Assembly (NCBI GenBank): GCA_050250255.1
Contig: JBFWOZ010000020.1
Span: 1 to 52,479, forward strand
Reading direction: 5' to 3'
Source: Bdellovibrionales bacterium
GTDB taxonomy: Bacteria > Bdellovibrionota > Bdellovibrionia > Bdellovibrionales > DASUEL01
Length of the DNA stretch: 52,479 nt
The notes below the pieces were generated by a model. The model was not told where the DNA came from. It made no database searches and saw only the letters and a list, made by a program, of their open reading frames with translations. Below, one piece after another: positions 373 through 30,089 of the stretch; within the stretch, counting starts at the first letter, position 1, and each line of letters opens with the position of its first letter. The position numbers were made by a program, and so were the translations under genes.

Positions 373-1326
373 ATGGTTACTCATACAGAAAAAATCGCAT
401 GGGTCTGTGTTTATTTACTCATTTTGTCTTCCCTCATCAGCTGCGACAGCAGTTTACGAGCGATGAAAGAGCAAGGGCAGATCGAGTCGGCACTCACAGT
501 TATTAATTTACCTCCGGAAGCATATTCGTGTGGTGGCGAAAGATTTGAATCGGATCTTTACCACGAAGGTAGCATTCATGGACAAAACGGTTGGACGACT
601 TTCCTTTCTTCTTTTAGTCAAGAAATCGTAAGATCAGATTCTGCTTGTCGAGGAAATGGTATGTGGAAATTAAGTAACTCGGTGACCGATGGTGGATACT
701 GGAATCAACCGTCATCGCCTGTTTTAACTCACGGAAGTGGGGAATCAGGCGTGCGTCGAGACGGAGATGGGGATGCTATGAGTCTCTCTTTTTTCTTTCG
801 AACTGTAGCGCCCAATGCAGATGGATCCGAATTTACCGTGAGCTTATCTCCAGAAGAAGCAGATCGACATGTGCTTCTGACCATCGTGAATGATACGAAC
901 GCAAAAGGTGGATTACAGATTGTCACCACCGAATTTAAAGGAAGTTTTGTTTCACGCGTGCTTGCAAGAAATCTATCGAGAACAGAGTGGCATCATGTTA
1001 AAATCAGCTCTCAATTGGTCGATCGAGTGAGGCCTACTGAAGGGCCAAACGATATCGTAACAATTTTTGTGAACGGAAAATTTGTTTATCAGCAAACGAG
1101 CTGGGAGAAATATTTCTGGGATCGAAAAAATGCGAATAAACAAAAAGAAATGCGCGTTGACCGACTCGTACGAACACTTTTTCGTCTCCCACCCAATTCC
1201 ATGCTCAAGGCTCGTTTTCCTGACGGACGAGATGGATTTTTTATTGATGATCTTAAGCAATGGACTTTTGATAGCGCCAACCCATCTGTAGTCATCGATC
1301 AATATAATACAGGGTTCGAACTTTAA
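373..1326 (+). CDS. Hypothetical lipoprotein, possibly concanavalin A/LamG-like beta-sandwich
   Basis: GGAGGAG RBS; hydrophobic N-terminus with lipobox LISC; WHHVKI...IFVNG and FFIDDL strands resemble ConA-like folds. Confidence 0.6.
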   Translation: MVTHTEKIAWVCVYLLILSSLISCDSSLRAMKEQGQIESALTVINLPPEAYSCGGERFESDLYHEGSIHGQNGWTTFLSSFSQEIVRSDSACRGNGMWKLSNSVTDGGYWNQPSSPVLTHGSGESGVRRDGDGDAMSLSFFFRTVAPNADGSEFTVSLSPEEADRHVLLTIVNDTNAKGGLQIVTTEFKGSFVSRVLARNLSRTEWHHVKISSQLVDRVRPTEGPNDIVTIFVNGKFVYQQTSWEKYFWDRKNANKQKEMRVDRLVRTLFRLPPNSMLKARFPDGRDGFFIDDLKQWTFDSANPSVVIDQYNTGFEL

Positions 1327-2165
1327 GAGAGTACGGATAATTCTTTCTTAGGGTTTTCAAAAATTTTGTGAATCGTTTGACACATGTGACTCGCATGTAC
1401 GCCATCAATCACCCGATGGTCAAAGGTCACGCAGAGACGAATCAAGGGCAACACAACCACTTTTCCGTCGCGTACTTCCGCTCGATCTTTGATCGCTCCC
1501 ACTGCAATAAGAAGAGGAATACGGCAATAAGGCACAAGTGGCACGAAGGCAGTTTCAAGCCCTAAAGAGCCAATGTTCGTAACCATGGCGCTACCAAAAG
1601 AATCTTTGGGGACTCCAAAAAGAGGAAGCCAGATATTGAGTCCGTACATAATAAAGCCAGAAAATTGTATGAGGTATTTTGCGAGAAACCCCGGTAGTAG
1701 AGACATCATATTTTTCATTTTTTTGTAAGAGGCGTCTTTACCTTTTTTAACTTTGTCCACAGACAAAGACATTTCTCGCGCTAACTCACTCACACTTTTG
1801 GTGTCCACGTTACGAGCTGTGACGCCGGAGAGATCTTGACCTTCCAAATCACTCGCGACTTGATAGAAAATATCGATCGTTTTTCGGGGATAGAGTTTGC
1901 CAAAACGTAACACCGAGTTGATGTCGGGATGACGACGTATGGTTTCCGCAATGGCTTTTCCTACAAAGTGGGTTGCAGTAATGCGTTCACCAGTTCGAGT
2001 TCTTTCTCCCTCAAGGTACTGAAGCATTGCGGAAGCATCGAGATCCATCATCCCGTAAACGCTGGGGTCACCTACGGTATTCCAGGTACCAATAGCGATC
2101 TTTCGCCAGGACGATAATCTTTGAGGTGGCCCATATTGAATATTTTGAGAGAAAAATAATGGCAT
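1323..2165 (-). CDS. 2-oxoacid dehydrogenase E2-type acyltransferase, catalytic domain only
   Basis: RKIAI start, GSAMVTNIGSLG and TFDHRVIDG catalytic motif; no lipoyl domain. Confidence 0.85.
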   Translation of the reverse strand: MPLFFSQNIQYGPPQRLSSWRKIAIGTWNTVGDPSVYGMMDLDASAMLQYLEGERTRTGERITATHFVGKAIAETIRRHPDINSVLRFGKLYPRKTIDIFYQVASDLEGQDLSGVTARNVDTKSVSELAREMSLSVDKVKKGKDASYKKMKNMMSLLPGFLAKYLIQFSGFIMYGLNIWLPLFGVPKDSFGSAMVTNIGSLGLETAFVPLVPYCRIPLLIAVGAIKDRAEVRDGKVVVLPLIRLCVTFDHRVIDGVHASHMCQTIHKIFENPKKELSVLS

Positions 2166-2311
2166 AAATTAGCTATATCCTGTGCTTCAGTTTTTTGCGA
2201 GACTTTCAGCTGTTTTAAGAAGTTATTCAAAAATACTGAGATTTGTATCAAGATGAGAATTTCATTTCATTAGCTTTCAGAAGTCTCTGAAACAATTAGC
2301 GAAAATCGTTT

Positions 2312-2338
2312 TAAGTTAGTAGCCCGAAATGCCGAAAA
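2312..2338 (+). promoter_or_regulatory. sigma28 (FliA)-like promoter
   Basis: TAAG-N15-GCCGAAAA against consensus TAAA-N15-GCCGATAA. Confidence 0.7.
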
Positions 2339-2346
2339 GAAGTGGT

Positions 2347-4608
2347 ATGGCTGCACGTATGTCGAGACTAAAAATCAATAGTTCGGGTTTCATGATTATC
2401 GAAGGTGTGATTGCCGTCATGCTCACACTCATCATTGCAAGCGGTGTTGGTTATTATGTGAATAGTAATTCTACGAGTTCCATTGCTGTTGGTAATGCCT
2501 CTTATTGTAATCAGTATGTCACAAGTTTTTCTAGTTTTTTACAAAGTAGTCAAAACAACCTTACGACGATTTCTTCTGGAGTTGCGCTGACATGCTCAGG
2601 CACCGTGCAAGCTGTTCCGCAGTCTGCGGTAGATCCTTATTGTCCTACGACAAATGCAGGATTGAACGTCACTGGTCCTGCCGGTGATCAGGTAGTGCGG
2701 CGACGTGCACTGTTATGTGGTCAATTTAGTGGAGAGCCCGCAGATTCTCAGGTTTTTAGAAATGGTGCGACTTGGGCGCAGAATCTTTATATTAACTGCG
2801 GAAATGCTGCGGGTTGTGGTTTTGGTACTTCTGGTCTTTTGCATAATCTCATCAGCGCAACTCCACTCGTCTTAGATACAGATGTGCAGATTCAAACATT
2901 CTATGATCTTTTGCCCCAGCCTTGGCTTTTTCCGGCCGGTGGCTCGCTTGATGAATTAAATCCATCGCCTGTTCGGTTGGAAGTATCCATCAGGCCTTTG
3001 AATGTTTTTAATCGTAACGTCACTTTTAACTGGGGTGCCGGACCAACAAGCTTTGCAACCGCCTATAAAGTGAATGACCCCAACGGATATCAAATTACAC
3101 TTCGTCCTTATTTTAAAAAAGTCGCGCGACTTCCGGTGTCTGCAGAAAACCCTATGACGGGTTGTCAAGATGTCACGATGATCGTGGGTTTTACTCAGGA
3201 TAATTCCTCAACAACACCGATTGTGGGCGCCCCATGGCTTACGGAATTGGTGAACTCAGGAGCTGATGGAGTTATTGACCAAGTGGATCCTAACGGTGCC
3301 ACCAATGCGGACAACTCGGTTTTGAATGCTCCTAACAACATCTATTATCGTGACGGAAGTGTTCGACAGGCTGGCGCGAAATGTAGTTGTCCGACTGTTG
3401 CAGCAGGAAGTTTCGTGGGAGAGTCTTGTGTAGGCTGGGATGATGTTGGTGTTTTTGCACGTCTTAATGAACCTCATGCCGTGCCCGTTGCGGAAGCTGG
3501 GGTGAATACAACTCCAGAGCAATGTGCGGAAGCTGTTTACCCGGGCGACTCGGATATGCGTGATTACACCTTGGCGACAAATGAAACATATTTATCTTCG
3601 GTGTGGAGAAATATGCCACACAGTCGTCTTCTCTCTGTGGGGATCCGTGATTCAGCAGGAAATCTTCTTGTGAGTGCGGCAGCTCCCGCAACCCCTCAAA
3701 GTGTGATGATTATTCCCGGATTTTGTCCTGCAACCAATACTTATTGTTCAGATGGTTCTCAAACAGACTTAGGTAATATGGCCACGAGTGCTGCGGCCTG
3801 TGGAGCCAATACGAATACTTATCCAGGTGCTGCGATGAATATTAATTGTAAACCTCACGATGGATGTTTCGGACTTTGTGGAAGTGGATCTCGCGCTTAC
3901 AATAATCCCGCAGGTCATCAAGCCAATTGTCCCGCAACCAATACTTACTGTTCTGTTGGCGTGAATCGCGGGCCTTATGCCTGTACTGCGGGCATAGATT
4001 GTACTCTTGATGCGAGATGTGCAGATAGCGTCTGCGATGAGTGCGGGCATGATACATGTCCTAACTCAACAATTCCTGTTGGGAATACTTGCCCTGCGAC
4101 AGCTTCATATTGTCCTGCAGCGGTAGTAGGTGGTGGCGGAATCTGGGGTAGACCTACGGATACTTGTGGAGCGGCTTGCCCTGTAGGGACACGTGCGGGT
4201 GTAGGGTGTCCAAATCCTGCGGCCGTATGTATAGGAACAGGTACGGGTGTTGACGATTGTGGAAACGCATGTCCAGCAGCAACCTATGGCGGTGGCGGTT
4301 GTGCAGATCCTGCAACTGTTGCTTGTGGAGTGGCTATTAATAATGATTGTGGATTTGCTTGTGGTACCACGGGAACTTCTGGGTGTGGTGGTGGTGGCGC
4401 CGGTGGTGGTGGCGGGTGTCCTGAATATGGATGGGATATGGCGGCTGAAGCGGCCCATGGTGCTGGGGGGCACTACCATTGTTTAGGTGATGGTGGTTGT
4501 GGTGATGGAACTTGGGGTGCCGGAGATTGCGAAGCTGTTCACTGTGTTGATTTCTGCTGTAGCTCTGCGGGCATGAGTTGTTGTGACGCTGGCATGGGTG
4601 GTTGCTAA
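2347..4608 (+). CDS. Large type IV pilin-like Cys/Gly-rich protein, paralog A
   Basis: Prepilin cleavage motif G|FMIIE plus hydrophobic helix; Cys-rich C-terminal half; start moved to ATG 2347 (or 2359) because ATG 2329 overlaps the promoter. Confidence 0.8.
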   Translation: MAARMSRLKINSSGFMIIEGVIAVMLTLIIASGVGYYVNSNSTSSIAVGNASYCNQYVTSFSSFLQSSQNNLTTISSGVALTCSGTVQAVPQSAVDPYCPTTNAGLNVTGPAGDQVVRRRALLCGQFSGEPADSQVFRNGATWAQNLYINCGNAAGCGFGTSGLLHNLISATPLVLDTDVQIQTFYDLLPQPWLFPAGGSLDELNPSPVRLEVSIRPLNVFNRNVTFNWGAGPTSFATAYKVNDPNGYQITLRPYFKKVARLPVSAENPMTGCQDVTMIVGFTQDNSSTTPIVGAPWLTELVNSGADGVIDQVDPNGATNADNSVLNAPNNIYYRDGSVRQAGAKCSCPTVAAGSFVGESCVGWDDVGVFARLNEPHAVPVAEAGVNTTPEQCAEAVYPGDSDMRDYTLATNETYLSSVWRNMPHSRLLSVGIRDSAGNLLVSAAAPATPQSVMIIPGFCPATNTYCSDGSQTDLGNMATSAAACGANTNTYPGAAMNINCKPHDGCFGLCGSGSRAYNNPAGHQANCPATNTYCSVGVNRGPYACTAGIDCTLDARCADSVCDECGHDTCPNSTIPVGNTCPATASYCPAAVVGGGGIWGRPTDTCGAACPVGTRAGVGCPNPAAVCIGTGTGVDDCGNACPAATYGGGGCADPATVACGVAINNDCGFACGTTGTSGCGGGGAGGGGGCPEYGWDMAAEAAHGAGGHYHCLGDGGCGDGTWGAGDCEAVHCVDFCCSSAGMSCCDAGMGGC

Positions 4609-4636
4609 AATTAGCGTCTCAAATCAAGTCGCTAGT

Positions 4637-4663
4637 TTAGCTATGTTCTTTATTTTCCGACAA
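4637..4663 (+). promoter_or_regulatory. sigma28 (FliA)-like promoter
   Basis: TTAG-N15-TCCGACAA, 6 nt before ATG 4670. Confidence 0.55.
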
Positions 4664-4669
4664 GTTTGT

Positions 4670-6976
4670 ATGAGGAATCGACAACATTCTCGGAAAATTC
4701 GTCATGATTTGGGATTCATGATGATTGAAGCCGTTCTTGCCGTTATGCTCGCGCTCATCGTTGCGAGTGGCGTGGGCTATTTTCTAAATAGCACTTCCAA
4801 TAATTCTAAAACCACAAGTACCTCCTCTTACTGTGGACAATATGTTGTGAGCTTTAATAGCTTTGTTCAATCCAGCGACAACACTTTAAAAACAATTTAC
4901 GGAGACCTGGCGCAGATATGTACTGGTAGTGTGAGTGCGGTACCTCCTTCGGCGACAGATCCTTTTTGTCCAATGACAAATGCAGGATTAAACACAACGG
5001 GCCCGGCGGGCGATCAGTTGGCGCGAAGACGAAGTCTTCTCTGTGGGCAATATAATGGTGGCCCTGCCGACCCTCAGCGTATGAGAGGTGTTGCCACTTG
5101 GGCGCAAAATCTTTACATCAATTGTGGAAACTCATCGGGTTGTGGATTTGGGGCTTCGGGGTATTTACATAATCGTATCAACGAAACTCCTCTTGTTCTT
5201 AATACCGACGCACAAATTCAAACATTTTACGATCTCCTGCCGCAGCCGTGGCTTTTTCCTGCGGGTGGTTCGGTGGATGAGTCGAATCCATCGCCTGTGA
5301 GATTAGAAGTTTCTATTCGCCCCCTCAATATTTTTCAGAGAAATACTACTTTTGATTGGGGCGTTGGCCCTACCACGTTTACAAATGCTTATCGCGTGAA
5401 TGATCCTAACGGTTATCAAGTGGTAATTCGTCCGTACTTTAAAAAAGTCGCAAGACTTCCGGCTTCTACAGAAAATCCAGAGCTTGGCTGCCAAGATATT
5501 CAGATGGTCGTCGGATTTTCAAGAGACAATTCAAGTCCGACCGCCATTACGGCGACCCCTCCATGGACTGCTCAACTTGTAAATTCGGGACCTAACGGAA
5601 CGATTGATCAAGCAAATCCTGCGGCGGCTACAAATGCCGATAATCCAACTCTCAATGCGCCAACAACAATTTATTATCGCGATGGAACCGTCAGACAAGC
5701 GGGCGCTATGTGTAGTTGTCCGAGTGTTGCGGCGGGAAGTTACAGCGGAGAATCTTGCATTGGTTGGGATGACATAGGAATTTTTGCGCGCTTGAATGAG
5801 CCGCATGCTGTTCCGGTTGCTGGCGCGGGAGTGATTGCGCAACCGAACCAATGTGCTTCTGCTGTCTATCCATCAGAAGCGCAAGCGCGTGACTACACAA
5901 TTGCTAACGATGAAACCTACATGTCAGTTGTTTGGAGAGGGATGCCTCATAGTCGTCTCCTCTCTGTAGGAATTCGCGATTCTGCGGGGAATCTTCTGGT
6001 CAATGCGACAAATCCATCGACTCCACAAACCATCATGATTCTTCCTGGCTATTGTCCTGCTCCAAGTTCTTATTGTGCCGATGGATCACAGACGGACGTG
6101 GGAGTTGTCGCGACAAATGCTGCGGCTTGCGGAGCGACCACAAATACTTATCCAGGTACGGTAATGAACATCAACTGTAAACCTCATGATGGATGTTTTG
6201 GACTTTGTGGAAGTGGCACGCGTGCTTACAACGTACCGGCTGGAAATCAGGCAAATTGTCCTGCGACAAACACCTATTGTTCCGTTGGTTTTAATCGGGG
6301 TCCCTACGCGTGTACTCCTGGTATCGATTGTAGTACGGATGTACGTTGCGGCGACAGTGTATGTGATGAATGCGGACACGATTCTTGTCCTAACTCGACA
6401 ATTCCAATTGGCAACACTTGTCCTGCAACGACCAACTATTGTGCGGGTGCCGTTGTTGGTGGCGGTGGAGTTTGGGGAAGACCCACGGACACTTGCGGAA
6501 ATGCGTGCAGTGTAGGGACGCGTGTAGGTGTAGGTTGTCCAAATCCTGCGGCAGTTTGTATCGGTACAGGCACAGGCGTTGATGATTGCGGACAAGCATG
6601 CCCAGCAGCGACGATGGTGTGTTGTGTGCCGAGTTGTGCGGATCCTGCGAGTGTATGTTCTGGCGATTCTATCAGCGATGGTTGCGGTGGAAACTGTGGT
6701 GGTGCAACAGGTACGATGGCATGTGGTGGACCAGGTGGTGGTGCGGGTGGCGGCGCGGGCGGTGGATGTATTCCGTCGGGTGCGCAGTGTTCTGCGTACT
6801 ACGATCCCAACCCTGAATGTAATGGCGGCGTAAGTTTTGACAATTGTGGAAATTGTTGTAACGGCGTGAACGGTCATCATTCCGGAGGGAATGCGACTTG
6901 TCCTGGAGTTGACGAGTCAGATCCAAAATGGACTGCTGGTAATTGGCCGCACGTTTGGTACGAAGTCTGTGACTAA
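4670..6976 (+). CDS. Large type IV pilin-like Cys/Gly-rich protein, paralog B
   Basis: Basic leader MRNRQHSRKIRHDLG|FMMIE plus hydrophobic helix; colinear with paralog A up to CPAAT, then divergent. Confidence 0.8.
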   Translation: MRNRQHSRKIRHDLGFMMIEAVLAVMLALIVASGVGYFLNSTSNNSKTTSTSSYCGQYVVSFNSFVQSSDNTLKTIYGDLAQICTGSVSAVPPSATDPFCPMTNAGLNTTGPAGDQLARRRSLLCGQYNGGPADPQRMRGVATWAQNLYINCGNSSGCGFGASGYLHNRINETPLVLNTDAQIQTFYDLLPQPWLFPAGGSVDESNPSPVRLEVSIRPLNIFQRNTTFDWGVGPTTFTNAYRVNDPNGYQVVIRPYFKKVARLPASTENPELGCQDIQMVVGFSRDNSSPTAITATPPWTAQLVNSGPNGTIDQANPAAATNADNPTLNAPTTIYYRDGTVRQAGAMCSCPSVAAGSYSGESCIGWDDIGIFARLNEPHAVPVAGAGVIAQPNQCASAVYPSEAQARDYTIANDETYMSVVWRGMPHSRLLSVGIRDSAGNLLVNATNPSTPQTIMILPGYCPAPSSYCADGSQTDVGVVATNAAACGATTNTYPGTVMNINCKPHDGCFGLCGSGTRAYNVPAGNQANCPATNTYCSVGFNRGPYACTPGIDCSTDVRCGDSVCDECGHDSCPNSTIPIGNTCPATTNYCAGAVVGGGGVWGRPTDTCGNACSVGTRVGVGCPNPAAVCIGTGTGVDDCGQACPAATMVCCVPSCADPASVCSGDSISDGCGGNCGGATGTMACGGPGGGAGGGAGGGCIPSGAQCSAYYDPNPECNGGVSFDNCGNCCNGVNGHHSGGNATCPGVDESDPKWTAGNWPHVWYEVCD

Positions 6977-7053
6977 ACTTCGTATTACCGAAGAGTGTCA
7001 TTGAGTCTAAAAGTTTTCTTTTCTCTCTCGGTCTCCTGTGTTTAGATAAATAC

Positions 7054-8337
7054 GTGGGGAAACAAAAAAGTTTTTTTAAAAAATTTCTGTTGAAAAAGAA
7101 ATTGCTTTGGGCTCTTGCCATTGTGATTGGCCTATTCAGTTTTAAAATTCTTCTCGATCAAACGGTAGAGTACGAAGCGAACGAAGATGCCTTAGAAGCC
7201 GAGACTCTTGTAGAGTCTGTAGAGGACATTTATCCCCATCTCATTGTTCCAGGAACCACCCTTTATGCAGATTTATTAAAATTAAATGTCAGCGGTTCAA
7301 CAATTCATAAAATTGTTCAAGCCGCAAAACCTGTGATGGATCTCAAACATCTTAAACCTGGCGTTCGATTTCAACTCTTTTACATACCGCAGTCGATGAC
7401 AGAACTCGCTTCCATTAAATTTCGCTTCTCTCCTGTAGAAACTTTAGAAGTGAGAAACGAAACTGGAAATTGGGTCGCAGAAAAAATCACCGCAGAAGTA
7501 GAGACCAAAATCACTCATTTTATGGGTTATGTGACCAGTTCTCTTTGGGAGTCCGCAGAGAATGCGAAGATGGATCCCAATCTGATTTCTGAGCTCGCCG
7601 AGATTTTTGGTTGGCAGGTCGATTTTGCGAGAGAGGTTCGGGCCAATGATCGATGGAGACTTCTGGTTGAACAAAAATTCGTAAAAGATGAGCCCTACGG
7701 CTGGGGTTCTATCATTGCGGCAGAATATGTGAACGCAGGGCAGGCTCACTCCGCTGCTCTGTTAAGAGTGGACGGCAAAGATATGGGTTATTTTGCTCCA
7801 GACGGCTCGAGTCTTCGTCGAATGTTTTTAAAAAGTCCTATTCGTTACGGTCGGATTTCTTCCAGGTTCCAGCGGAAAAGGTTTCATCCTATTTTAAAAA
7901 TTATGCGTGCCCATCAAGGTGTTGATTATGCAGCTCCGCAAGGTACTCCGATTCGAGCCGTGGGAGACGGGGTTGTGAAATTTGTGGGTTGGAGCGGTGG
8001 TGGAGGGAAAGTGATTAAAATCCGCCACAATTCTACATACGAAACAGCTTACAAACATCTGAGCGGTTTTGCTAAGGGACTACGTTCAGGGTCCTCTGTG
8101 CAACAGGGACAGGTGATTGGTTATGTGGGTAACACAGGCCTTTCAACGGCTTCACATTTACATTTTGAGTTTTTCGTGAGTGGACGATTTGTAGATCCGC
8201 TCGGAAGAAAATTCCCTACGGCGGAACCTGTGCCGTCAAAGTTTCTCTCTGTGTTTAAAACAGAAGCACTGACTCAGCTTGCGAATCTTCCACCATGGCA
8301 GTCGATCGTACCTGCTCGTGAGCCTGCGACTTACTAG
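7054..8337 (+). CDS. M23 family peptidoglycan DD-metalloendopeptidase (MepM/Csd3-like)
   Basis: N-terminal TM; HQGVDYAA (HxxxD) and HLHFE (HxH) zinc motifs; FLKSPI-RISS-R-HPIL segment. Confidence 0.92.
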   Translation: MGKQKSFFKKFLLKKKLLWALAIVIGLFSFKILLDQTVEYEANEDALEAETLVESVEDIYPHLIVPGTTLYADLLKLNVSGSTIHKIVQAAKPVMDLKHLKPGVRFQLFYIPQSMTELASIKFRFSPVETLEVRNETGNWVAEKITAEVETKITHFMGYVTSSLWESAENAKMDPNLISELAEIFGWQVDFAREVRANDRWRLLVEQKFVKDEPYGWGSIIAAEYVNAGQAHSAALLRVDGKDMGYFAPDGSSLRRMFLKSPIRYGRISSRFQRKRFHPILKIMRAHQGVDYAAPQGTPIRAVGDGVVKFVGWSGGGGKVIKIRHNSTYETAYKHLSGFAKGLRSGSSVQQGQVIGYVGNTGLSTASHLHFEFFVSGRFVDPLGRKFPTAEPVPSKFLSVFKTEALTQLANLPPWQSIVPAREPATY

Positions 8338-9457: not shown

Positions 9458-9581
9458 TGCGGTCCTCCAGGAATCCATCTCTACTTAAGGCTAGGTGGGC
9501 TTTCTCTAGAAATCAAGCTGATTGACCAAACTCATATTCTTTTGAAAGCTACTGGTGGGTATTGACTCAAGGAGGACGGAA

Positions 9582-10910
9582 ATGAAATGGGGATTTTTAC
9601 TTTACGCATTATGTTTTTCTCTTGATGCGAAAGCGGTGCCGCGTGCACAAACCGTAAAACAGATTTCCTCAGGAATTTCTTTTACCTGTGCCGTATTGAT
9701 GACGGGTCAGGTGAAGTGTTGGGGAGATAACCAATTTGGTCAGTTAGGCCTTGGTAACACGCTAGTTAAAGGGGCACGCCCAGGAGAGATGGGAGCAAAT
9801 CTTCCGGCTCTGAATTTGGGGACCACGGAATCAGTGCAATTTCTTTCAACGGGTGATGAGTTTGCCTGCGCGATTTTTCAATCAGGAAAAGTGAAATGTT
9901 GGGGAAGAAATACTACGGGCCAATTGGGTCTTGGTGACGTGGAAAATCGTGGCGATGCTCCGACAGAAATGGGAACAAATCTTCCTTATGTAGATCTCGG
10001 AACAACGTCGAAGGTTACGAAAATTGCTTTAGGAACGGCTCACGTTTGCGCAGCCTTTGAAGACGGTCGACTAAAATGTTGGGGCGACAATGCGGATGGA
10101 CAGCTTGGCCTCGGCAACGTTCAACCTCGTGGTGACGGAGCAAACGAAATGGGAACGAATCTTCCTTATATTGATCTTGGGCCAAACGAGAAAGTAAAAG
10201 ATGTGTGGGTAGGAACGGCATTTAGTTGCGCACTTTTAGTTTCTGGAAAAATAAAATGTTTCGGAGCCAACGGTGCAGGCCAATTGGGATTAGGCGATCA
10301 ATTAGATCGTGGTGACGGGGCAAACGAAATGGGCGCCAACCTACCTTACGTGGATTTAGGAAGTGATATTCAAGTTCTTAGCCTTGCGCTTGGAGATGTT
10401 CATTCTTGTGCGCTCACTCACCAATTTAAAGTGAAGTGCTGGGGAGATGCCAATTACGGACAATCTGGTTACGGGGATACCGAGGACCGTGGTGATGAAC
10501 CGAACGAAATGGGTGATGCTCTTCCAGCAGTGGATTTGGGATTCGCTCAGTTCGTGATTGATCTTCGATCATTCAATCAGACGACCTGCGCTCTTATGGT
10601 GAACGGAACTATGAAGTGCTGGGGAAATAATGAAACAGGAGCTTTAGGACTTGGTGATGTGAACTCTCGAGGCGATCAAACAGGAGAGATGGGTGAATCT
10701 TTGCTCCCTCTCTATCTCGGTAAAAAACTTTCTGTCTCGGATATTGCAACAGGGCTTGATCACACCTGCGCCATTGTAGGCACGAAGTTGCAGAATGCGG
10801 TGAAATGTTGGGGAGCAAATGCTCGAGGTCAATTGGGTCTCGGTGATACCGTTTTAAGAGGAGATTCACCAGATGAAATGGGCGACAACCTTCCGATCGT
10901 CGCCCTCTAA
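9582..10910 (+). CDS. Secreted RCC1/BLIP-II-like repeat protein, copy 1
   Basis: Signal peptide; seven KC(W/F)GxNxxGQLGLG...RGD...EMG.NLP repeats; AGGAGG RBS before ATG 9582. Confidence 0.9.
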   Translation: MKWGFLLYALCFSLDAKAVPRAQTVKQISSGISFTCAVLMTGQVKCWGDNQFGQLGLGNTLVKGARPGEMGANLPALNLGTTESVQFLSTGDEFACAIFQSGKVKCWGRNTTGQLGLGDVENRGDAPTEMGTNLPYVDLGTTSKVTKIALGTAHVCAAFEDGRLKCWGDNADGQLGLGNVQPRGDGANEMGTNLPYIDLGPNEKVKDVWVGTAFSCALLVSGKIKCFGANGAGQLGLGDQLDRGDGANEMGANLPYVDLGSDIQVLSLALGDVHSCALTHQFKVKCWGDANYGQSGYGDTEDRGDEPNEMGDALPAVDLGFAQFVIDLRSFNQTTCALMVNGTMKCWGNNETGALGLGDVNSRGDQTGEMGESLLPLYLGKKLSVSDIATGLDHTCAIVGTKLQNAVKCWGANARGQLGLGDTVLRGDSPDEMGDNLPIVAL

Positions 10911-10916
10911 CAAAAA

Positions 10917-11618
10917 TTACTTAGAATTGAATGTGATGTTGTGACCGACCTGGCTCGTTTCGTGGTTGTGACAGTAGTACTGTCCAACAAAGCTAGGACG
11001 GTTTCCTGGAATTCTCACTTCGTAAACACCACCGTGACGTTCTGGCGTTGCACGAGCAAGAGGTGTAGACGCGTGAGGAATTGCGCCTGCGCCGTGAACT
11101 AAATGTTCTGACGATTGGTCGTAGTTATAAACGCGAAACAAAACTCCGTTAGGATGAGTGCGAAGAGCCGCTTGTCGTGGGGTTGACCAAGCATGGTTTG
11201 CATCCAAACGCACTTCGTAGATCGCTTCTACTTTGAGCGCTACTTGTGCTTGTGACGCTTCCATTTTTCCGACGGTTTTTGCATTCACTAGAAAAAATCC
11301 ATTATCAAATGAAGGAGAGCCTGCTGCAGTTGTTAAAGCGAGCGGAACTTGTATCGTTTGGCCAGCACGAATAACGATTGGAGTTGTTGGGATTTGAATC
11401 ATCACTTCTTTTTCAAGATCAACAGTGTCAAGAGTGCGGCGATCAATGGAGAGCTCGATGGCTGTACCATCAAAATCAGTAGGTGCAGTAAGAGTCATCA
11501 TGATCGTTTGTGTGGCGGCGAGAGGAAGCGCGAGTGCAGGTGCCGTAACTTGAACGGGTGCTGCATGTGCCGCAACGGACATGATAAAAGCGCAAGTGAA
11601 CGCGATTTTGTTAAACAT
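10917..11618 (-). CDS. Secreted hypothetical protein with C-terminal cupredoxin-like motif
   Basis: AAGGAG RBS before ATG 11618; signal peptide ending AHA; EHLVH...GQYYCHNHE metal-ligand pattern. Confidence 0.6.
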   Translation of the reverse strand: MFNKIAFTCAFIMSVAAHAAPVQVTAPALALPLAATQTIMMTLTAPTDFDGTAIELSIDRRTLDTVDLEKEVMIQIPTTPIVIRAGQTIQVPLALTTAAGSPSFDNGFFLVNAKTVGKMEASQAQVALKVEAIYEVRLDANHAWSTPRQAALRTHPNGVLFRVYNYDQSSEHLVHGAGAIPHASTPLARATPERHGGVYEVRIPGNRPSFVGQYYCHNHETSQVGHNITFNSK

Positions 11619-11652
11619 GGAATATCTCCTTTTGTTGTTTGGAATCGTTCCA

Positions 11653-11681
11653 AGACTAGGAAGCCTTTGTATTCTCGTCAA
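11653..11681 (-). promoter_or_regulatory. sigma70-like promoter of the cupredoxin-like gene
   Basis: TTGACG-N17-TAGTCT on the minus strand. Confidence 0.6.
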
Positions 11682-11790
11682 GCTTAACGCACGTCGCTAA
11701 CGATTGGAATTGGCAAATAAGTTTGACCCTCCATAGAGTATGAACTTTATAGTGCTGACATAGAGTAGAGTATGTCCACTCTTTTTGTTT

Positions 11791-11829
11791 AATGAGACGG
11801 TTAGCGAACTGTCGTTTGTGGAGTTGTAA
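11791..11829 (+). pseudogene. Decayed 3' end of a lost RCC1-like paralog
   Basis: Reads NETVSELSFVEL* against NEMGDNLPYVEL*; 27/39 nt match to 13117-13155, last 13 nt identical. Confidence 0.55.
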
Positions 11830-11835
11830 AAAATA

Positions 11836-13155
11836 ATGAATTTTATTTTGGCTTTGATTCTCCTGTTCTCATCCGATGGTTTCGCGCAGTCAGCTCCCAT
11901 CAAAGATGTATTCGTTGGGGGTCGTAACGGATGTGTTTCTCTCATCGACGGAAGTATTAAATGTTGGGGAGATAATGATACTGGTCAGCTTGGGTTAGGA
12001 GATAATACAATTCGTGGTGATCAGCCGAATGAAATGGGAGCGAATCTGCCAACTCCTCAATTAGGTACGGGCTTAAAAATAAAAGAATACGCAGGCGGTA
12101 CAATTCATAATTGTGCTCTGTTTGAAAACGGTCGTGTGAAATGTTGGGGTTATAATTATACGGGCGCTTTAGGTTTAGGCCACACGCAGACTTTGGGCAG
12201 AAATGCAGGCGAAATGGGTGATCGATTGCCATTTGTTGAGCTTGGAACCGACATAAAAGTAAAACATTTAGCGGTGGGTTTTTATAATACCTGCGCTGTT
12301 TTTGAAGATGGAAAAATAAAATGTTGGGGCAGAAACAATGCGGGACAGCTTGGACTTGGCGATAGACGTGACCGTGGCGATGAGCCTGGTGAAATGGGAG
12401 CCAACTTACCATTTATTGATTTAGGCAGTGGTGAAAAAGTAGAGAATGTGTGGGTTGGTCGAGATGCCATCTGTGCCCTCCTACAAAATAAAAAAATTAA
12501 ATGTTGGGGATACAATACCAACGGACAATTAGGGCTTGGCGATCAGCAAAATCGTGGTGACACACCCAGCGAAATGGGAGCCAATCTTCCTTATGTTGAT
12601 TTAGGACAAAACGTTGATGTGCAAAGCCTCTCCATGGGTGGCAACCATGTTTGCGCAGTGACGACAGCGATGCAGATAAAATGCTGGGGATCTAATGTTT
12701 ATGGTGAGCTTGGTCTTGGCGATACCGAAAGTCGAGGAGATAAACCCAACGAAATGGGAACTAATCTTCCTTATGTTGACTTAGGGCCTCATGAGTTGGT
12801 TGTGCGTGTGGCAACTTACTTTGAAGGCACATGCGCTCAATTAATGAATCGCACTGTGAAGTGTTGGGGCGACAATCTTTATGGGCAATTAGGAGCTGGT
12901 CATAACAAGAGACTCGGTGATGATGCGGGTGAAATGGGGGGTGCATTGTTGCCTATTTATCTTGGTAAAAAGCAAGTGGTACAGCAGGTTTCGGCCGGAG
13001 GCTGGAACGTATGTGCGATGGTAGGGACTGTAGCAAAACCACAAATTAAATGTTGGGGTCGTAATACCTCCGGGCAGCTAGGATTGGGACACACGAGAAA
13101 TGTGGGAGCCGCGCCTAATGAAATGGGCGACAACCTTCCTTATGTGGAGTTGTAA
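11836..13155 (+). CDS. Secreted RCC1/BLIP-II-like repeat protein, copy 2
   Basis: Signal peptide; seven KCWG...GQLGLG...EMG repeats. Confidence 0.9.
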   Translation: MNFILALILLFSSDGFAQSAPIKDVFVGGRNGCVSLIDGSIKCWGDNDTGQLGLGDNTIRGDQPNEMGANLPTPQLGTGLKIKEYAGGTIHNCALFENGRVKCWGYNYTGALGLGHTQTLGRNAGEMGDRLPFVELGTDIKVKHLAVGFYNTCAVFEDGKIKCWGRNNAGQLGLGDRRDRGDEPGEMGANLPFIDLGSGEKVENVWVGRDAICALLQNKKIKCWGYNTNGQLGLGDQQNRGDTPSEMGANLPYVDLGQNVDVQSLSMGGNHVCAVTTAMQIKCWGSNVYGELGLGDTESRGDKPNEMGTNLPYVDLGPHELVVRVATYFEGTCAQLMNRTVKCWGDNLYGQLGAGHNKRLGDDAGEMGGALLPIYLGKKQVVQQVSAGGWNVCAMVGTVAKPQIKCWGRNTSGQLGLGHTRNVGAAPNEMGDNLPYVEL

Positions 13156-13156
13156 G

Positions 13157-14485
13157 ATGAAGTTTTTATTTCTCATTTATCTCTTTACTTTTCTAAACGC
13201 TTTGGCTGTAAATGCTTTTCAGCAAGAGTCCATTAAACAATTGGTGACTGGAGCGCAGCATTCTTGCGTGGTTTTTCAGTCAGGTAAAGTGAAGTGTTGG
13301 GGAAATAACAACTTCGGACAATTGGGATTAGGGGACGTAGAAGTTCGAGGGGATGAAGCGAATGAAATGGGAGCTCGCTTGCCTTACGTGAACTTAGGGA
13401 ACAATCTGGAAGTGGATCATTTAACTGCAGGTCATAATCATACCTGTGCTTTTTTTCGTACTGGACAAATCAAATGTTGGGGAGCCAATAACATGGGCCA
13501 ACTCGGCTTAGGTGATAGGAACCCCCGAGGAAAAACTCCTGAAGAAATGGGAGATGCACTTCCGTTTGTGGATTTGGGTACAAATCAACAGGTGAAGAAG
13601 CTCTCTTCTAAAGGCAATCACAATTGCGTGTCCTTTGAAGATGGAGCTCTTAAATGCTGGGGTTGGAATAATTTTGGTCAGTTGGGCATTGGTCATCTCA
13701 GCACAATTGGAGATGAACCGAACGAAATGGGAGGAGCGCTTTCTTATACAACATTAGGATTAAATGAAAAAATAAGGGAGATCTATACTGGATATCAACA
13801 TAGCTGTGCTCTTCTTGAATCTAAAAAAATAAAATGTTGGGGTTATGCTGGTAGCGGGCGTTTAGGACTTGGAGATAATAAATCTCGGGGTGATACCCCT
13901 GACGAAATGGGTGACGCATTACCAATTCTCGATCTGGGGAGTGGGTTTGAAATTAAAAGTTTATCTATTGCTATACCTTCATGCGCTTTAACAACTCAAG
14001 GCAGAATGAAATGTTGGGGAGCAAACTCTTATGGAGAGCTTGGTATAGGAGACAGTACGTCCCGTGGAACTAAACTCACTGATATGGGGGATGCGCTCGC
14101 GCACGTGGACCTTGGATTTAACCAAGAGGTGATTGAGATCTCTGCGGGCTCTGGCGGTGTGTGCGCCGTATTAGCTAACCAAACTGCAAAGTGTTGGGGC
14201 CGAAATGGCTCAGGACAATTAGGTTTGGGAGATAGAGAGGCCCGTGGCGATAATCCAGGTGAGATGGGAGAAAATCTTCAACCTATTTATTTAGGACGAA
14301 GACAACCTATCCTTCATGTCGAAGTCAGTGAGGAATTTACTTGTGCTTTACTTGGGACTCGGACTCAAAATGCTGTGAAGTGTTGGGGACGCAATGGTTT
14401 GGGCCAGTTGGGAGTTGGGGACCGGCGTGAGCGCGGTGCTCAGCCAAGTGAAATGGGCGACAACCTGCCATATGTGGAGTTGTAA
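13157..14485 (+). CDS. Secreted RCC1/BLIP-II-like repeat protein, copy 3
   Basis: ATG 13157 (MKFLFLIYLF signal peptide) lies 1 nt after the upstream stop; seven repeats. Confidence 0.9.
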   Translation: MKFLFLIYLFTFLNALAVNAFQQESIKQLVTGAQHSCVVFQSGKVKCWGNNNFGQLGLGDVEVRGDEANEMGARLPYVNLGNNLEVDHLTAGHNHTCAFFRTGQIKCWGANNMGQLGLGDRNPRGKTPEEMGDALPFVDLGTNQQVKKLSSKGNHNCVSFEDGALKCWGWNNFGQLGIGHLSTIGDEPNEMGGALSYTTLGLNEKIREIYTGYQHSCALLESKKIKCWGYAGSGRLGLGDNKSRGDTPDEMGDALPILDLGSGFEIKSLSIAIPSCALTTQGRMKCWGANSYGELGIGDSTSRGTKLTDMGDALAHVDLGFNQEVIEISAGSGGVCAVLANQTAKCWGRNGSGQLGLGDREARGDNPGEMGENLQPIYLGRRQPILHVEVSEEFTCALLGTRTQNAVKCWGRNGLGQLGVGDRRERGAQPSEMGDNLPYVEL

Positions 14486-14495
14486 TCTCTAAAAC

Positions 14496-15950
14496 ATGGA
14501 AGATTACGGAATACATTGGTTCAGACGTGATTTAAGAGTCGCCGGCAATTCCGCACTTCTTTATAATTGGAAGAAAAACAAAGGCCGTGTCGTCGGCGTA
14601 TTTTGTTTCGATTCACAATTTTTATCTCGCCCTGACTTTTCTCATAATCGTTTCGCTTTTTTCCTCAAGACTCTTAAGGCCTTAAAAAAGGAACTCCAAG
14701 AAATTGGCTCAGATCTTTTAATGGTCAATCAACTTCCAGAAGTTTTCTTTTTAAGTTTGAACACAGACGTACAACAGCCACCCCATTTGATCACATGGAA
14801 TCGCGATTATGAACCTTTTGCTTGTGATCGAGATAAAAAAATTGAAAATACATTGTTCAAAATGAGTTTACCTCATCATGTAGAACGAGACCATTTGCTT
14901 CTAGAACCCGAAGAGGTCTTGAAGGTTTCTTGTGACTCCTATCAAGTTTTTTCAGCTTACGCGAAGAGGTGGTATTCGCTTTTACATACCGATGAGGTGC
15001 AAGAGCGACTGCAGCGTCAGACGGCAGGGATTCAGTATCTTGGACGAGCTGAAAGAAAAAAGAATTTTTCTCTTCAGTGGAAAGATGTTCTTAAAAAACC
15101 GAAAAGAGATGCTCTCGAGCTTTTTGAAAGGAAGAATCAACAGAAAGTGACCATCTTAATTCCTGATGGCGGCAGTCATGAAGCTTTTAAGGCGCTTGAT
15201 TGGTTTCGCTCAAGGCTGCCTTATTATGAAAAATTGCGAGATTTCCCATCTGAGTCAGGGACCTCTCGTCTTTCCATGTATTTAAAAAATGGTTCACTTA
15301 CCACAGCACAAATCATTCATTATCTTGATCTAGGAAAACAGAGCTTTGAAAGTACGGAGAGCTCCAATAAGTTTTTAAAGGAGCTTGTTTGGCGCGAGTT
15401 TTACTATTCGATTCTTTACCATCACCCCCGTGTTGAAACTGAAGCCTTTATTGGAAAATATAAAAAAATAAAATGGGTGAATAACAAAATACTTTTTAAA
15501 TCATGGTGCAGGGGAGAGACGGGTTATCCCATCGTCGATGCGGGCATGAGGGAGCTCAATACGACCGGTTGGATGCATAATCGTGTGCGAATGATTGTGG
15601 CTTCCTTTCTAACGAAAGATCTTTTGATCGATTGGCGACTCGGTGAAAAGTACTTTATGAAGCAGCTTTTAGATGGAGATCTTGCACCCAATAATGGAAA
15701 CTGGCAGTGGGCGGCTTCTACCGGTTGTGATGCCCAACCTTACTTCCGCATCTTCAATCCGCTCTTGCAAAGTCAGAAGTTTGATCCTGATGGCAGTTAC
15801 ATTAGAAAATTTGTCCCAGAACTCCGTCATCTTTCAGACAAGGAAATTCATAATCCCACTCTGGAGTCTCGGAAAAAATATCGCTATTCGCTCCCGGTTG
15901 TGAGCCACGAAATTCAAAAGAAAAAAGCCATAAAGCTATTTGACATATAA
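14496..15950 (+). CDS. phrB: Class I CPD DNA photolyase
   Basis: WFRRDLR, TSRLS, ELVWREFY, GWMHNRVRMIVASFL, NNGNWQWAASTG motifs. Confidence 0.93.
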   Translation: MEDYGIHWFRRDLRVAGNSALLYNWKKNKGRVVGVFCFDSQFLSRPDFSHNRFAFFLKTLKALKKELQEIGSDLLMVNQLPEVFFLSLNTDVQQPPHLITWNRDYEPFACDRDKKIENTLFKMSLPHHVERDHLLLEPEEVLKVSCDSYQVFSAYAKRWYSLLHTDEVQERLQRQTAGIQYLGRAERKKNFSLQWKDVLKKPKRDALELFERKNQQKVTILIPDGGSHEAFKALDWFRSRLPYYEKLRDFPSESGTSRLSMYLKNGSLTTAQIIHYLDLGKQSFESTESSNKFLKELVWREFYYSILYHHPRVETEAFIGKYKKIKWVNNKILFKSWCRGETGYPIVDAGMRELNTTGWMHNRVRMIVASFLTKDLLIDWRLGEKYFMKQLLDGDLAPNNGNWQWAASTGCDAQPYFRIFNPLLQSQKFDPDGSYIRKFVPELRHLSDKEIHNPTLESRKKYRYSLPVVSHEIQKKKAIKLFDI

Positions 15951-16094
15951 TTGGGTAAGAAATTCAAATATTTCTTCTTCATCACAGGTTTTGAGAGTCA
16001 AAGAAGATGACAATAAGTCTTTTTGAAAGCTAAAACAGGCCCCGTTTGCTCGGGCTTCCTTGAGTCATAAGTTCCTAGAGTTTAAGAGGTGGTT

Positions 16095-17426
16095 ATGAAA
16101 TCATTTATTTTATTTTTTGTTTACTGGGGTTTATTTTTTCAAACTTCAAAAATTTTTGCCGCAACTTCTGTGAAGCAAGTGGATGCAGGTAACAATCACG
16201 TTTGTGCTCTTCTCATGACCGGAGAAGTGAAGTGTTGGGGCGGGAATCAAACGGGAGCACTTGGCGCCGGAGACAATAAACCACGTGGTGATCGTGTGGC
16301 CGACATGGGCGCGAGACTTTTGCCGGTGGATTTAGGTACAACCGAAAGGGTTGTAAGCCTGAACGTTAACAGTTTTCAATCCTGTGCGCTTTTTGAAGAA
16401 GGACGTATGAAATGTTGGGGTGATAATAGATTTGGTCAACTTGGCTTAGGGGATGTAATCTCTCGTGGAGATGCCCTCGGTGAAATGGGTAAAAATCTTC
16501 CGTTTATTGATTTAGGAACCAATCAAAAAATTCTTAGTGTCTCTGTTGGCGGTAATCATGCCTGCGCCATCTTAGATGGTTATCGTTTGAAATGTTGGGG
16601 CCGTAACTCAGATGGACAGTTAGGGCTTGGTGATAATCTCAATCGAGGTATTGAGCCCAATCAAATGGGCGATCAGCTACCCTATGTCAATTTAGGAACT
16701 GACGAAAAAGCTTTGAGAGTGCAGGCGGGGGATTTGCATACTTGCGTACTTTTGTTGTCTGGGAAAGTGAAGTGTTTTGGTCGCAATAATATTGGTCAGT
16801 TAGGTCTCGGAGATACTCAGCCCCGAGGACTTTTACCAGGGCAGATGGGTGACAATTTGCCGGTGGTCCAGTTGGGAACAGCTTTAAAAGCGATCAATCT
16901 TTTTTTAAGCTCGAGCCATACTTGCGTTCTTTTGGAAAACAAAAAAATCAAATGTTGGGGCAATAATAACGGCGGACAATTAGGTCTTGGTGATACACAG
17001 AACAGAGGAGACACGGCTGAAGAAATGGGTGATGCGCTCCCGTTTGTAAATTTAGGGTCTGGAGAAATGGTTGTAGGTCTAAGTCTTAACGGAAATCAAG
17101 GCTGCGCTCAGCTCATCAACAATACACTCAAATGCTGGGGTAATAATAATTTTGGACAGCTGGGAATTGGGAATAATTTAACTAAAGGCGACGAGGCTGA
17201 TGAAATGGGTGGCTATCTCCAAACGGTCTATGTAGGCAGTCGAAAAAATGTTGTTTCTTCTTCTGTGGGAACGCAATTTGCTTGCGCGGTGATTGGGAAT
17301 CCTGTCGAAAATGGTGTCAAATGCTGGGGGCGTAACATTCTAGGCCAACTTGGAATTGAAAACGATAAAACCATCGGGCTTACGATGGAAGAACTCGGGG
17401 ATAATTTAGGCTTCGTAGCGCTTTAA
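16095..17426 (+). CDS. Secreted RCC1/BLIP-II-like repeat protein, copy 4
   Basis: GAGGTG RBS before ATG 16095; signal peptide; seven repeats. Confidence 0.9.
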   Translation: MKSFILFFVYWGLFFQTSKIFAATSVKQVDAGNNHVCALLMTGEVKCWGGNQTGALGAGDNKPRGDRVADMGARLLPVDLGTTERVVSLNVNSFQSCALFEEGRMKCWGDNRFGQLGLGDVISRGDALGEMGKNLPFIDLGTNQKILSVSVGGNHACAILDGYRLKCWGRNSDGQLGLGDNLNRGIEPNQMGDQLPYVNLGTDEKALRVQAGDLHTCVLLLSGKVKCFGRNNIGQLGLGDTQPRGLLPGQMGDNLPVVQLGTALKAINLFLSSSHTCVLLENKKIKCWGNNNGGQLGLGDTQNRGDTAEEMGDALPFVNLGSGEMVVGLSLNGNQGCAQLINNTLKCWGNNNFGQLGIGNNLTKGDEADEMGGYLQTVYVGSRKNVVSSSVGTQFACAVIGNPVENGVKCWGRNILGQLGIENDKTIGLTMEELGDNLGFVAL

Positions 17427-22275: not shown

Positions 22276-22296
22276 AAAAGGTGCGCCGCTCCTTTT
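22276..22296. repeat. 21-bp quasi-palindrome AAAAGGTGC-N5-TCCTTTT, copy 1
   Basis: Between the convergent desaturase and gspN stops; second copy at 38954-38974. Confidence 0.45.
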
Positions 22297-23260
22297 AGAG
22301 GATAGTGATGCGAGGGGGGACGTTGAAGTTTGAGCCGGTGAGTCTGAGGGCGTATTGTGTGTTTGCAGCGTTGGAAGATTTTTTGTAGTCGCTTAAGAAG
22401 CTTAAAAATAGACTCGCTTTTTGTTCAAAAGACGTCACGGTCGTTAAGCGTACTTCGATGTCATAACTTCCCGGTATAAGTTGTGTGCGCCCGGCGAGAG
22501 TTGCAACTCGTACATCTACGCGGCCCTTCACTTGCGCCACCAACTCATCATTCCCTTGCCCTGCCGTGAATCTTTCGATTTGAAGTCGTCCATCTTTTAA
22601 AACTCCTTCAAAAGTCACATTTTTCAACGTAATGCTCGGAAGGGCAAGAGGACCGAGTGGAGTGGGTACCACTTCTGTAGGGAGAACAAATTGGTTTACT
22701 TGAAGCTCAATGCGGCCGCTAGGCTGTTCAACCATTTGAGGGTCAATGTCGGTATATCCTGAAATCTTCACTTTCCCTTGTAGACCAAGAGGAATGGGAG
22801 AAAGTTTGATGAGCTGATTCAAATCTAAATTATTTCCATCAATACTAATATTTTGACTTGTTGTTTTGTTGTTAAGCTTGGCCTGCTTCAAGCCCATATC
22901 GATGTCGCCACCCATGAGACCAACCGCATGAATATTCATCCCCGGTTTAAATGCAAGAAGACTTGCGATAGAAGGATACACCGAGAGCGAACGTGCCTGA
23001 AGCGGAGGAAAGAGCGGGGTCTCTACGTGAACTTCGTTAAGCTTAATACCAAAGCCAGGAAACAGAGAAAGACTTGGCTCGCGAAATTGAACAAAAATTT
23101 GGTTATTCGTCATTTTGGAAACTTGAGAGGAAACAAAGTCTCCCACGTCTTGAAAAGGGAAGAGAATAACGAGGCTAAACACAAGACTGGCAACGAAAAA
23201 AATGACTTTAAATTTATGAAAACGAAAAGTGTGAATGAGAGACTGTATTAAGCCTTTCAT
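22295..23260 (-). CDS. gspN: Type II secretion system protein N
   Basis: Last gene of the gsp operon; N-terminal TM ending LFPFQD followed by a beta-rich body. Confidence 0.75.
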   Translation of the reverse strand: MKGLIQSLIHTFRFHKFKVIFFVASLVFSLVILFPFQDVGDFVSSQVSKMTNNQIFVQFREPSLSLFPGFGIKLNEVHVETPLFPPLQARSLSVYPSIASLLAFKPGMNIHAVGLMGGDIDMGLKQAKLNNKTTSQNISIDGNNLDLNQLIKLSPIPLGLQGKVKISGYTDIDPQMVEQPSGRIELQVNQFVLPTEVVPTPLGPLALPSITLKNVTFEGVLKDGRLQIERFTAGQGNDELVAQVKGRVDVRVATLAGRTQLIPGSYDIEVRLTTVTSFEQKASLFLSFLSDYKKSSNAANTQYALRLTGSNFNVPPRITIL

Positions 23261-25604: not shown

Positions 25605-25610
25605 GAATTT

Positions 25611-27811: not shown

Positions 27812-28311
27812 GGGGTAGGTCCCTCTTTTTTGTACTCCACCATGTAGGTTGCAAGAGAGTGTTCAAGGGTTTTTTGTTCGTTTTTAAAAATGACCGAGAC
27901 TTTCATTTCCTTTACGGCGTCTTCAATCATCTCGGTGAGTTGTTTCACAATCATGATTTCGACCTCGGTAGCGCCACCAGGACGGGAGGTTAATGCGGAC
28001 GACATATCGGGGATTTCTAATTTCTTCGACTTCATTGTCCAAGAAATGGATTTGTAGTCGTCGCCAAAGTCGCCATCTTCCTCGTCGGGAATATCAGAGA
28101 GTGGGCGGTCTTTATATTTCAATTCGAACTCGGTCATTTTCTTTTGCAGCAAAAAAGACATTGTCGTCAGTTGTCGAGATCGACCTAACGAGCTAAAACT
28201 TCCGCTCCAGGAGTTCATAAGCACAATCAAGGCACCTGCCAAAATGATCATAGCGATGAGTGTTTCAACGAGAGTGAAACCTTTTTTTGAAAAAGAAAAT
28301 GGGGATTTCAT
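27808..28311 (-). CDS. gspI: Type II secretion minor pseudopilin I
   Basis: G|FTLVETLIA; operon position. Confidence 0.8.
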   Translation of the reverse strand: MKSPFSFSKKGFTLVETLIAMIILAGALIVLMNSWSGSFSSLGRSRQLTTMSFLLQKKMTEFELKYKDRPLSDIPDEEDGDFGDDYKSISWTMKSKKLEIPDMSSALTSRPGGATEVEIMIVKQLTEMIEDAVKEMKVSVIFKNEQKTLEHSLATYMVEYKKEGPTP

Positions 28312-30056: not shown

Positions 30057-30089
30057 CCGAGAAGTCTTAATATTCCTAACAAAAGGGCA

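Follow-up and report, generated by a model that had tools for sequence, protein, structure and literature searches.

Two giant modular pilins with different cysteine-rich tips in a Bdellovibrionales genome, likely alternative subunits of a type IVa pilus tip complex

We analysed a stretch of 52,479 nucleotides from a Bdellovibrionales bacterium (GenBank assembly GCA_050250255.1, contig JBFWOZ010000020.1, positions 1 to 52,479 of the forward strand; hereafter the window), which is contig C20 of a genome assembled to 99% completeness in 95 contigs (G000). Two neighbouring genes, A and B, encode giant proteins that begin like type IV pilins and end, after a cysteine-rich stalk and a glycine hinge, in small cysteine-rich tips that differ between them. 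Their features are as follows.

2347..4608, + strand: gene A, giant modular pilin; the called open reading frame (ORF) is 2329-4608 (759 residues)
2347..2553, + strand: A, basic leader ending in Gly (cleavage before 2389), Glu5 and a predicted 54-residue alpha-1 helix (sequence; model helix 2-55, predicted local distance difference test score (pLDDT) 79-97)
2554..3198, + strand: A, pilin head with a long inserted loop region and three beta strands (model, fold search, alignment)
3199..3714, + strand: A, immunoglobulin (Ig)/FnIII-like domain (predicted structure, Z 4-5)
3724..4386, + strand: A, Cys-rich stalk of five repeats starting at residues 466, 534, 588, 627 and 658
4387..4416, + strand: A, poly-Gly hinge
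4417..4605, + strand: tip A, 63 residues, 10 Cys, with conserved Trp, Glu and His-x-His-Cys
4670..6976, + strand: gene B, giant modular pilin of 768 residues (ORF call; cleavage before 4715)
4670 to about 6043, + strand: B, head and Ig-like domain (alignment with A)
6053..6724, + strand: B, Cys-rich stalk of five repeats
6725..6766, + strand: B, poly-Gly hinge
6767..6973, + strand: tip B, 69 residues, 8 Cys, no relative found

The first-pass annotation of this DNA had described both genes as prepilins with interchangeable tips and, indeed, ORF calls and the sequence place the ORFs, cleavage sites, glycine hinges, tips and cysteine counts where it had put them. The pilin-type N-terminus it proposed also holds: a hydrophilic leader, a class III prepilin site (G|FMIIE in A, G|FMMIE in B) and a hydrophobic stretch carrying Glu5 can be read directly in both proteins. 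The start given for gene A, 2347, is an in-frame ATG, but the second one, the ORF opening at 2329. Each protein contains 48 Cys, and both tips contain CC pairs, Trp and His. A Logan contig of 13,478 nucleotides spans 1800-7500 without any difference from the window; since the run may be the source of the window, this agreement checks the assembly only.

The proposal that the two genes share a constant body was not borne out. The bodies are 71% identical in amino acid sequence over 689 columns (tblastn, E 0.0), the tips do not align, and at the DNA level identity is 70%, with 93 of 264 four-fold sites identical and a longest exact match of 17 nucleotides. The saturation of synonymous sites thus points to an old duplication. 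Colinearity had been thought to stop at a CPAAT motif, which ends at 4284 in A and 6613 in B; a fifth Cys repeat, however, lies beyond it in both genes (18 of 36 residues identical), so the true break between A and B is the hinge.

The Ig-like domain, the five repeats and the tip are all fused C-terminally to the pilin module, which is the layout of modular type IV pilins such as PilB and PilC of Streptococcus sanguinis (Raynaud et al. 2021, bioRxiv 2021.01.27.428410 and PMC8179133). Those proteins share the class III signal, the pilin module, extra C-terminal modules and an expected position at the pilus tip. What A and B add to the pilin module, in contrast, is an Ig-like domain, a stalk of Cys repeats and small tips of no named family; there are several paralogs per genome, and the head has a large insert.

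Neither A nor B matches any Pfam or NCBIfam family, and no match to the stalks or tips was found in Pfam, NCBIfam, PDB sequences or the Atlas, where the best scores were 0.87 or lower and none was usable for tip A. The AlphaFold2 model of the A head (pLDDT 69.7) has the 54-residue helix (2-55), three strands and a large low-confidence insert, and in a fold search 18 of 50 rows were type IV pilins or pseudopilins. The top match was TTHA1218 (Z 3.7, root-mean-square deviation 2.9, 77 of 82 residues), which is EpsI/GspI-like (PMC5131608), and the second a chain of the XcpV-XcpW complex (Z 3.5, 88 of 89 residues). Ranks 1, 2 and 7 were TTHA1218 and the short chains of XcpV-XcpW and EpsI-EpsJ (Z 3.1-3.7), the identity of these chains being taken from their length. 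Residues 291-462 of A model as an Ig/FnIII-like sandwich (Z 4-5), and 4 of 25 members of the class match Pfam fn3.

Close relatives of A and B are rare: a search of representative proteins returned six, including B itself, and a scan of genome contigs for relatives found none. One of the six (P0003, here X2) is the second gene of another tandem pair in another genome (locus L072: X1, 803-3295; X2, 3420-5804). The closest homolog, L073, has a frame break near 1100 at low coverage, and only the part before the break entered the head alignment. The genome of the window also holds a third, distant paralog, C (C30:9517-11865), whose tip is not cysteine-based and by eye resembles the ends of two proteins in a sister genome (G001), which suggests vertical inheritance for some of the tips. 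Searching with a profile of the group brought up giant pilins across the order, about 450 to 2,650 residues long and with varied C-termini; 80 further genomes from that first search gave mostly matches to the N-terminal helix, and this count was discarded. Removing the helix does not abolish the alignment between the A/B group and 20 giants of other families (HH probability 98.7, E 2e-16), and two Cys of the A head are kept across the class. A profile of the giants of other families matches C and four others, but neither A nor B. A joint profile (E<=1e-12) finds the class in 62 of 384 Bdellovibrionales genomes, 46 of which had not been used in the profile; paralog counts from this survey are lower bounds, as at most four candidates per genome were scored. 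The distribution is patchy: in the largest genus, 7 of 44 genomes have such a gene. Three large prepilin-type proteins (L054:1485-4661, L069:2071-6402 and L071:613-2886) end, as labelled by eye, in thrombospondin-like repeats, a vWA-like domain or an S74-like tail.

The system had been put forward as undescribed. The modular-pilin design is already known, whereas neither the class nor its likely place in the tip complex was described in the open literature searched, subscription papers lying outside that search. More than 1,200 modular pilins are listed in the supplement of bioRxiv 2021.01.27.428410, and members of the class may be among them; the three supplementary files of PMC8179133 (29,359 characters, possibly without the full protein list) do not mention Bdellovibrio. 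Bd2724, a prepilin-type gene of the attack phase with low fitness on planktonic prey (PMC6561027), could not be tied to the class without its sequence.

The neighbourhoods of the giant genes suggest where the proteins sit. A pilin gene resembling PilW/GspJ (J-like) is present in 57 of the 62 class genomes, and 27 of the 57 have a giant no more than 7 kb away from it, six of these 27 having served as seeds of the J profile. At L106, L107, L108, L110 and L112 a giant, a J-like pilin with Glu5 and a pilin without Glu5 resembling PilX/GspK (K-like) stand together, and where a giant adjoins a J-like gene a K-like one is often present as well. The J and K labels were assigned from size, Glu5 and gene order, and no family model names these proteins; the K profile, built from six rows, matches 27 of 62 class genomes. 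The genome of the window encodes a single J/K pair (C9:54466-56239), in which the K-like gene lacking Glu5 adjoins J, no third pilin lies beside the pair, and the three giants are elsewhere, A and B themselves being on a different contig. Giants outnumber J genes in 10 of 57 genomes, by as much as four to one. The genome of the window has type IVa machinery, with PilQ, three PilT-family ATPases, two A24 peptidases and a PilA-like pilin, and also encodes FliA.

The arrangement resembles the PilI-J-K, PilV-W-X and GspI-J-K complexes (PMC12918778, PMC5131608), in which three minor pilins are linked, two with Glu5 and one without; the top-ranked fold matches of the A head appear to be I-type, though tied with other pilins. 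I-J-K is a conserved initiation core (PMC12918778) and the giants are linked to J and K; most simply, then, the giant would be the I subunit and its paralogs alternatives to one another, so that the giant pilins likely fill the PilV/GspI slot of a type IVa tip complex. The bulky, putatively adhesive part would then belong to the I-like subunit, where the known complexes have it on K or PilY1, and a single J/K pair would be served by several I-like genes. A complex prediction of J, K and the A head scored 0.01 against a mark of 0.32, with the fold of the partners uncertain, and was counted neither for nor against. PilY1 (PF05567) was matched in neither this genome nor any of 281 genomes of the phylum, but no positive control matched either, so its absence is not established.

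Upstream of each gene lies a candidate promoter.

2311..2337, + strand: sigma-28 (FliA)-type site before A, TTAAG-N16-CCGAAA (10 of 11 matches to consensus)
4636..4662, + strand: sigma-28-type site before B, TTTAG-N16-CCGACA (9 of 11 matches to consensus)

The consensus of attack-phase promoters in B. bacteriovorus is TTAAG-N16-CCGATA (PMC3627812). The site before A overlaps the ATG at 2329, so that translation probably starts at 2347 or 2359. With up to two mismatches, the 16-nucleotide spacer occurs before 43 of 2052 genes, compared with 10-26 for ten other spacers; such sites also precede pilA, one pilT and L073, the last at nearly the same distance with different spacer letters. In A, B and L073 an ATG follows just 7-9 nucleotides past the second box (window 2338-2347 and 4663-4670; L073 322-329), suggesting leaderless or nearly leaderless mRNAs, and an 18-bp hairpin (4652-4698) covers the start of B. 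Activation by FliA, separate for A and for B and in the free-swimming phase, is likely.

The tips, moreover, have not stayed on one body. The tip A domain occurs on three proteins: A, X2 and a protein of 310 residues encoded in the genome of the window (C21:28071-29003, - strand; L008:5072-6004), in which three Cys repeats and a Gly-rich linker precede it. We take the latter to be lipoprotein-like from the FQNC near its N-terminus. The three copies share 17 invariant columns, including eight Cys, Trp, Glu and His-x-His; leave-one-out profiles recover the third member each time among 5,416 proteins (E 5e-6, 2e-10 and 4e-7), and none of 2000 shuffles with Cys fixed reached the real score of 31.0 bits (best 18.7). 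The tip A profile found no further carrier in 300 genomes of the taxonomic class, 400 genomes of the phylum or a protein search, with the reservation that a three-row profile is weak, and the tip B profile recovered only tip B itself in a likewise weak search (2 candidates).

X1 ends in a third tip, and X2 has an extra module of 42 residues before its tip. Head identity groups by genome (A-B 71%, X1-X2 66%, 25-30% between pairs), whereas the C-terminal part of X2 departs from this grouping: repeat 4 matches A and B at 74-78% and X1 at 33%, repeat 5 resembles that of B, and the tip resembles that of A. Counts of X1-like to A-like sites in X2 change from 173:44 in the head to 14:28 in the later stalk, with a switch at about residue 530 (Fisher p 8e-9; the breakpoint was picked after viewing the repeat identities), and the distance from A to X2 falls from about 2.1 changes per site in the head to about 0.2 in repeats 2-3. 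The best reading of this pattern is an old exchange of the C-terminal half, to which fast change in X1 could contribute. The body, which had been treated as a single block, thus appears to have exchange points within the stalk repeats as well as at the hinge. Homologs with only these two tips, inherited vertically, would have refuted the idea of exchangeable tips, and this is not what was seen: with a third tip and a mosaic gene in the closest tandem pair, and tip A on three proteins, the tips of giant pilins are mobile over evolutionary time.

In some relatives the swapping looks recent. One genome (G009, C1:289784-307518; L126, L127) has two giant copies, inverted and divergently oriented, that are 99.4% identical over 3,937 nucleotides with different ends; each is followed by an inverted headless frame that has 370-570 nucleotides in common with the stalk end, at 98%, and then carries its own tip, so that four tips belong to one body. 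By eye no recombinase was recognised within 280-316 kb, the layout is of the pilE/pilS type, and the locus is a candidate tip switch by homologous recombination. In G368 (C1:264010-301586; L138-L140) two copies are 99.3% identical over 3,987 nucleotides with unrelated ends, and each adjoins a transposase-like gene. Among the six genomes in which paralogs were compared, the pair of G064 is also close (96%), and those of G037, G389 and G015 are more diverged. A short tip-like frame overlaps and follows a giant gene in G037 (C1:601422-602024; L113), possibly a headless spare tip. The class thus shows recent tip swapping in G009 and G368; a running switch would be putative in any of these genomes.

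Taken together, these data suggest that A and B are alternative I-type tip subunits that show different binding domains, probably for prey, and that were diversified by duplication and old recombination; we put the probability of this interpretation at roughly 60%. PilD would cleave the leader of either protein, one giant at a time would join the J/K pair at the pilus base and be pushed out at the pilus tip, and the Cys-rich stalk is predicted to hold the small, presumably disulfide-bonded domain outward. The end domain would bind a surface ligand, most likely on prey, whereupon PilT retraction would draw the cell in. Tip variety would come from duplicated genes and, now and then, from recombination in the hinge or the stalk repeats, over evolutionary time and not by a switch running at this locus. 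Alternative tips would then let the cell grip different surfaces or prey.

A number of observations weigh against this interpretation. A and B miss the prepilin models PF07963 and TIGR02532, both of which only paralog C passes, and some giants lack Glu5. Every fold match of the A head has Z <4, and with the pilin rows lying within 1 Z of one another the fold does not separate I-type from other pilins; Foldseek gave nothing at E<=0.001. In 30 of 57 genomes no giant is close to J; many of these genomes are fragmented, and four are single contigs. Known tips are topped by the K subunit or PilY1, to which the bulk belongs (PMC12918778, PMC5131608), so a bulky I subunit is unusual. A first, stricter promoter pattern, chosen after viewing A and B, is not enriched genome-wide (27 matches, 24-28 in shuffles), and its looser form precedes only 3 of 43 other giants and none of C, X1 and X2. 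The stalk tree has no resolved branching, and the mosaic signal of X2 could also stem from fast evolution of the X1 stalk. Finally, the predatory lifestyle of the host is presumed from its order, whose members' proteins carry Bdellovibrio names in NCBI, and in B. bacteriovorus pilin genes were reported to be needed for predation and not for prey binding (PMC5430801).

The first-pass annotation also proposed the GGN-rich hinge as a recombination junction; in the strong form of this idea the locus would be an active polymorphic switch that exchanges tips at the hinge among cells of one population, as in a shufflon or a pilE/pilS system. A Gly run does stand directly before the tip in both genes of both tandem pairs, and relatives with nearly identical bodies and different ends (G009, with headless cassettes, and G368) show that the class may do so elsewhere. 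At A and B, however, the saturated four-fold sites and the 17-nucleotide longest match speak against recent exchange, and the hinges are at best 71% alike, with no matching sites and no inverted repeat pair. Stalk and tip profiles found no headless stalk or tip copies, and thus no silent cassette, in six frames of the genome; none of its seven tyrosine recombinases (PF00589) lies on the window contig; and reverse transcriptase (PF00078) had 0 matches, its positive control matching in 3 of 14. Contigs of three sequencing runs contain no A/B joint or variant, with the limits that contigs drop rare variants and two runs cover scraps only, and loose ends at the hinges trace to unrelated GC-rich contigs. 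Database copies of X1 (4) and X2 (3) retain the same tip. The PilV shufflon of R64/TP114 (PMC9045228) likewise joins a constant pilin N-terminal part to short variable C-terminal adhesins (69-113 residues, compared with 63-69 here), but the A/B locus lacks an Rci recombinase, sfx-like sites and invertible cassettes, and its tips are fixed on separate full genes. The locus thus has the make-up neither of a shufflon nor of pilE/pilS-type gene conversion or a diversity-generating retroelement: no sign of a running tip switch was found here, and what survives of the proposal is the exchangeable Cys-rich tip on a stalk. An active switch at A and B is already largely refuted, and we consider it very improbable.

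The same proteins could occupy the same position and bind something other than prey: surfaces, biofilm matrix, eukaryotic cells, or metal through the Glu/His cluster; or the tips could vary to escape phage that bind pili. Known modular pilins bind host proteins or glycans (bioRxiv 2021.01.27.428410), tip A keeps its Glu and His-x-His, the class is patchy even within one genus, and the reported dispensability of pilin genes for prey binding in B. bacteriovorus fits this reading too. The FliA-type sites, in contrast, point to the hunting phase, and two variable systems of predators concern prey. The Kil Tad pilus of Myxococcus xanthus (PMC12075869) has alternative minor-pilin Tips with a large variable subunit, and prey recognition differs by Tip, so that the Tips set prey range; it is a Tad system with four complete tip sets, whereas A and B are type IVa-like with one common J/K pair, and the likeness is one of design. 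The MAT fibres of B. bacteriovorus (PMC10769870), from the same order, form a repertoire of surface proteins with a conserved N-terminus and swapped tips that bind prey glycans, but MATs are trimeric beta-prism fibres, many with S74, whereas A and B have pilin leaders, Cys-repeat stalks and no Pfam S74 match. Prey recognition by the tips, though putative, is plausible, and a ligand unrelated to prey seems unlikely to us. Alternatively, the giants may not be the I subunit and may instead be non-core minor pilins, K-like caps, subunits of a type II secretion system (T2SS) pseudopilus or surface proteins anchored in the inner membrane. Class members carry the NCBI name 'type II secretion system protein', J and K are not neighbours of A and B, the fold scores of the A head are low, and a complete-looking T2SS cluster lies 19 kb away in the window (22295-36418). 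That cluster, however, has its own five pseudopilin-sized genes, four with N_methyl matches, a separate Glu5-less K-like gene already stands beside J, and the grouping of J, K and a giant recurs across several families, which makes a different position for the giants quite improbable.

If A and B are indeed alternative I-type subunits, the type IV tip complex would gain a new layout, in which the I subunit carries the adhesin. The class would also contribute a small, new Cys/His domain that moves between pilins and lipoproteins. We offer a broader proposal tentatively, and would sooner bet against it than on it: in Bdellovibrionales the pilus adhesin may be carried by a giant PilV/GspI-type subunit instead of PilY1, as an interchangeable set per single J/K core, with tips drawn from a pool of disulfide domains common with surface lipoproteins, expressed in the hunting phase and setting prey range, and some lineages, such as G009, may have added silent cassettes that switch the tip within the population. 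A 2026 preprint (10.64898/2026.07.08.737194) names the type IVa pilus as a candidate for first prey recognition by Bdellovibrio-like predators, and the class offers concrete parts for such work: a tip trio in cultured Bdellovibrio, small tips that can be expressed separately, and natural tip swaps.

Elsewhere in the window, an ORF at 39189-39896 is presumably a REP-associated (RAYT/IS200-like) transposase-like gene. Four similar proteins of 440-460 residues with repeated CWG motifs, which we take to be RCC1-like, are encoded at 9555-17426 and may form a second paralog family of surface proteins.

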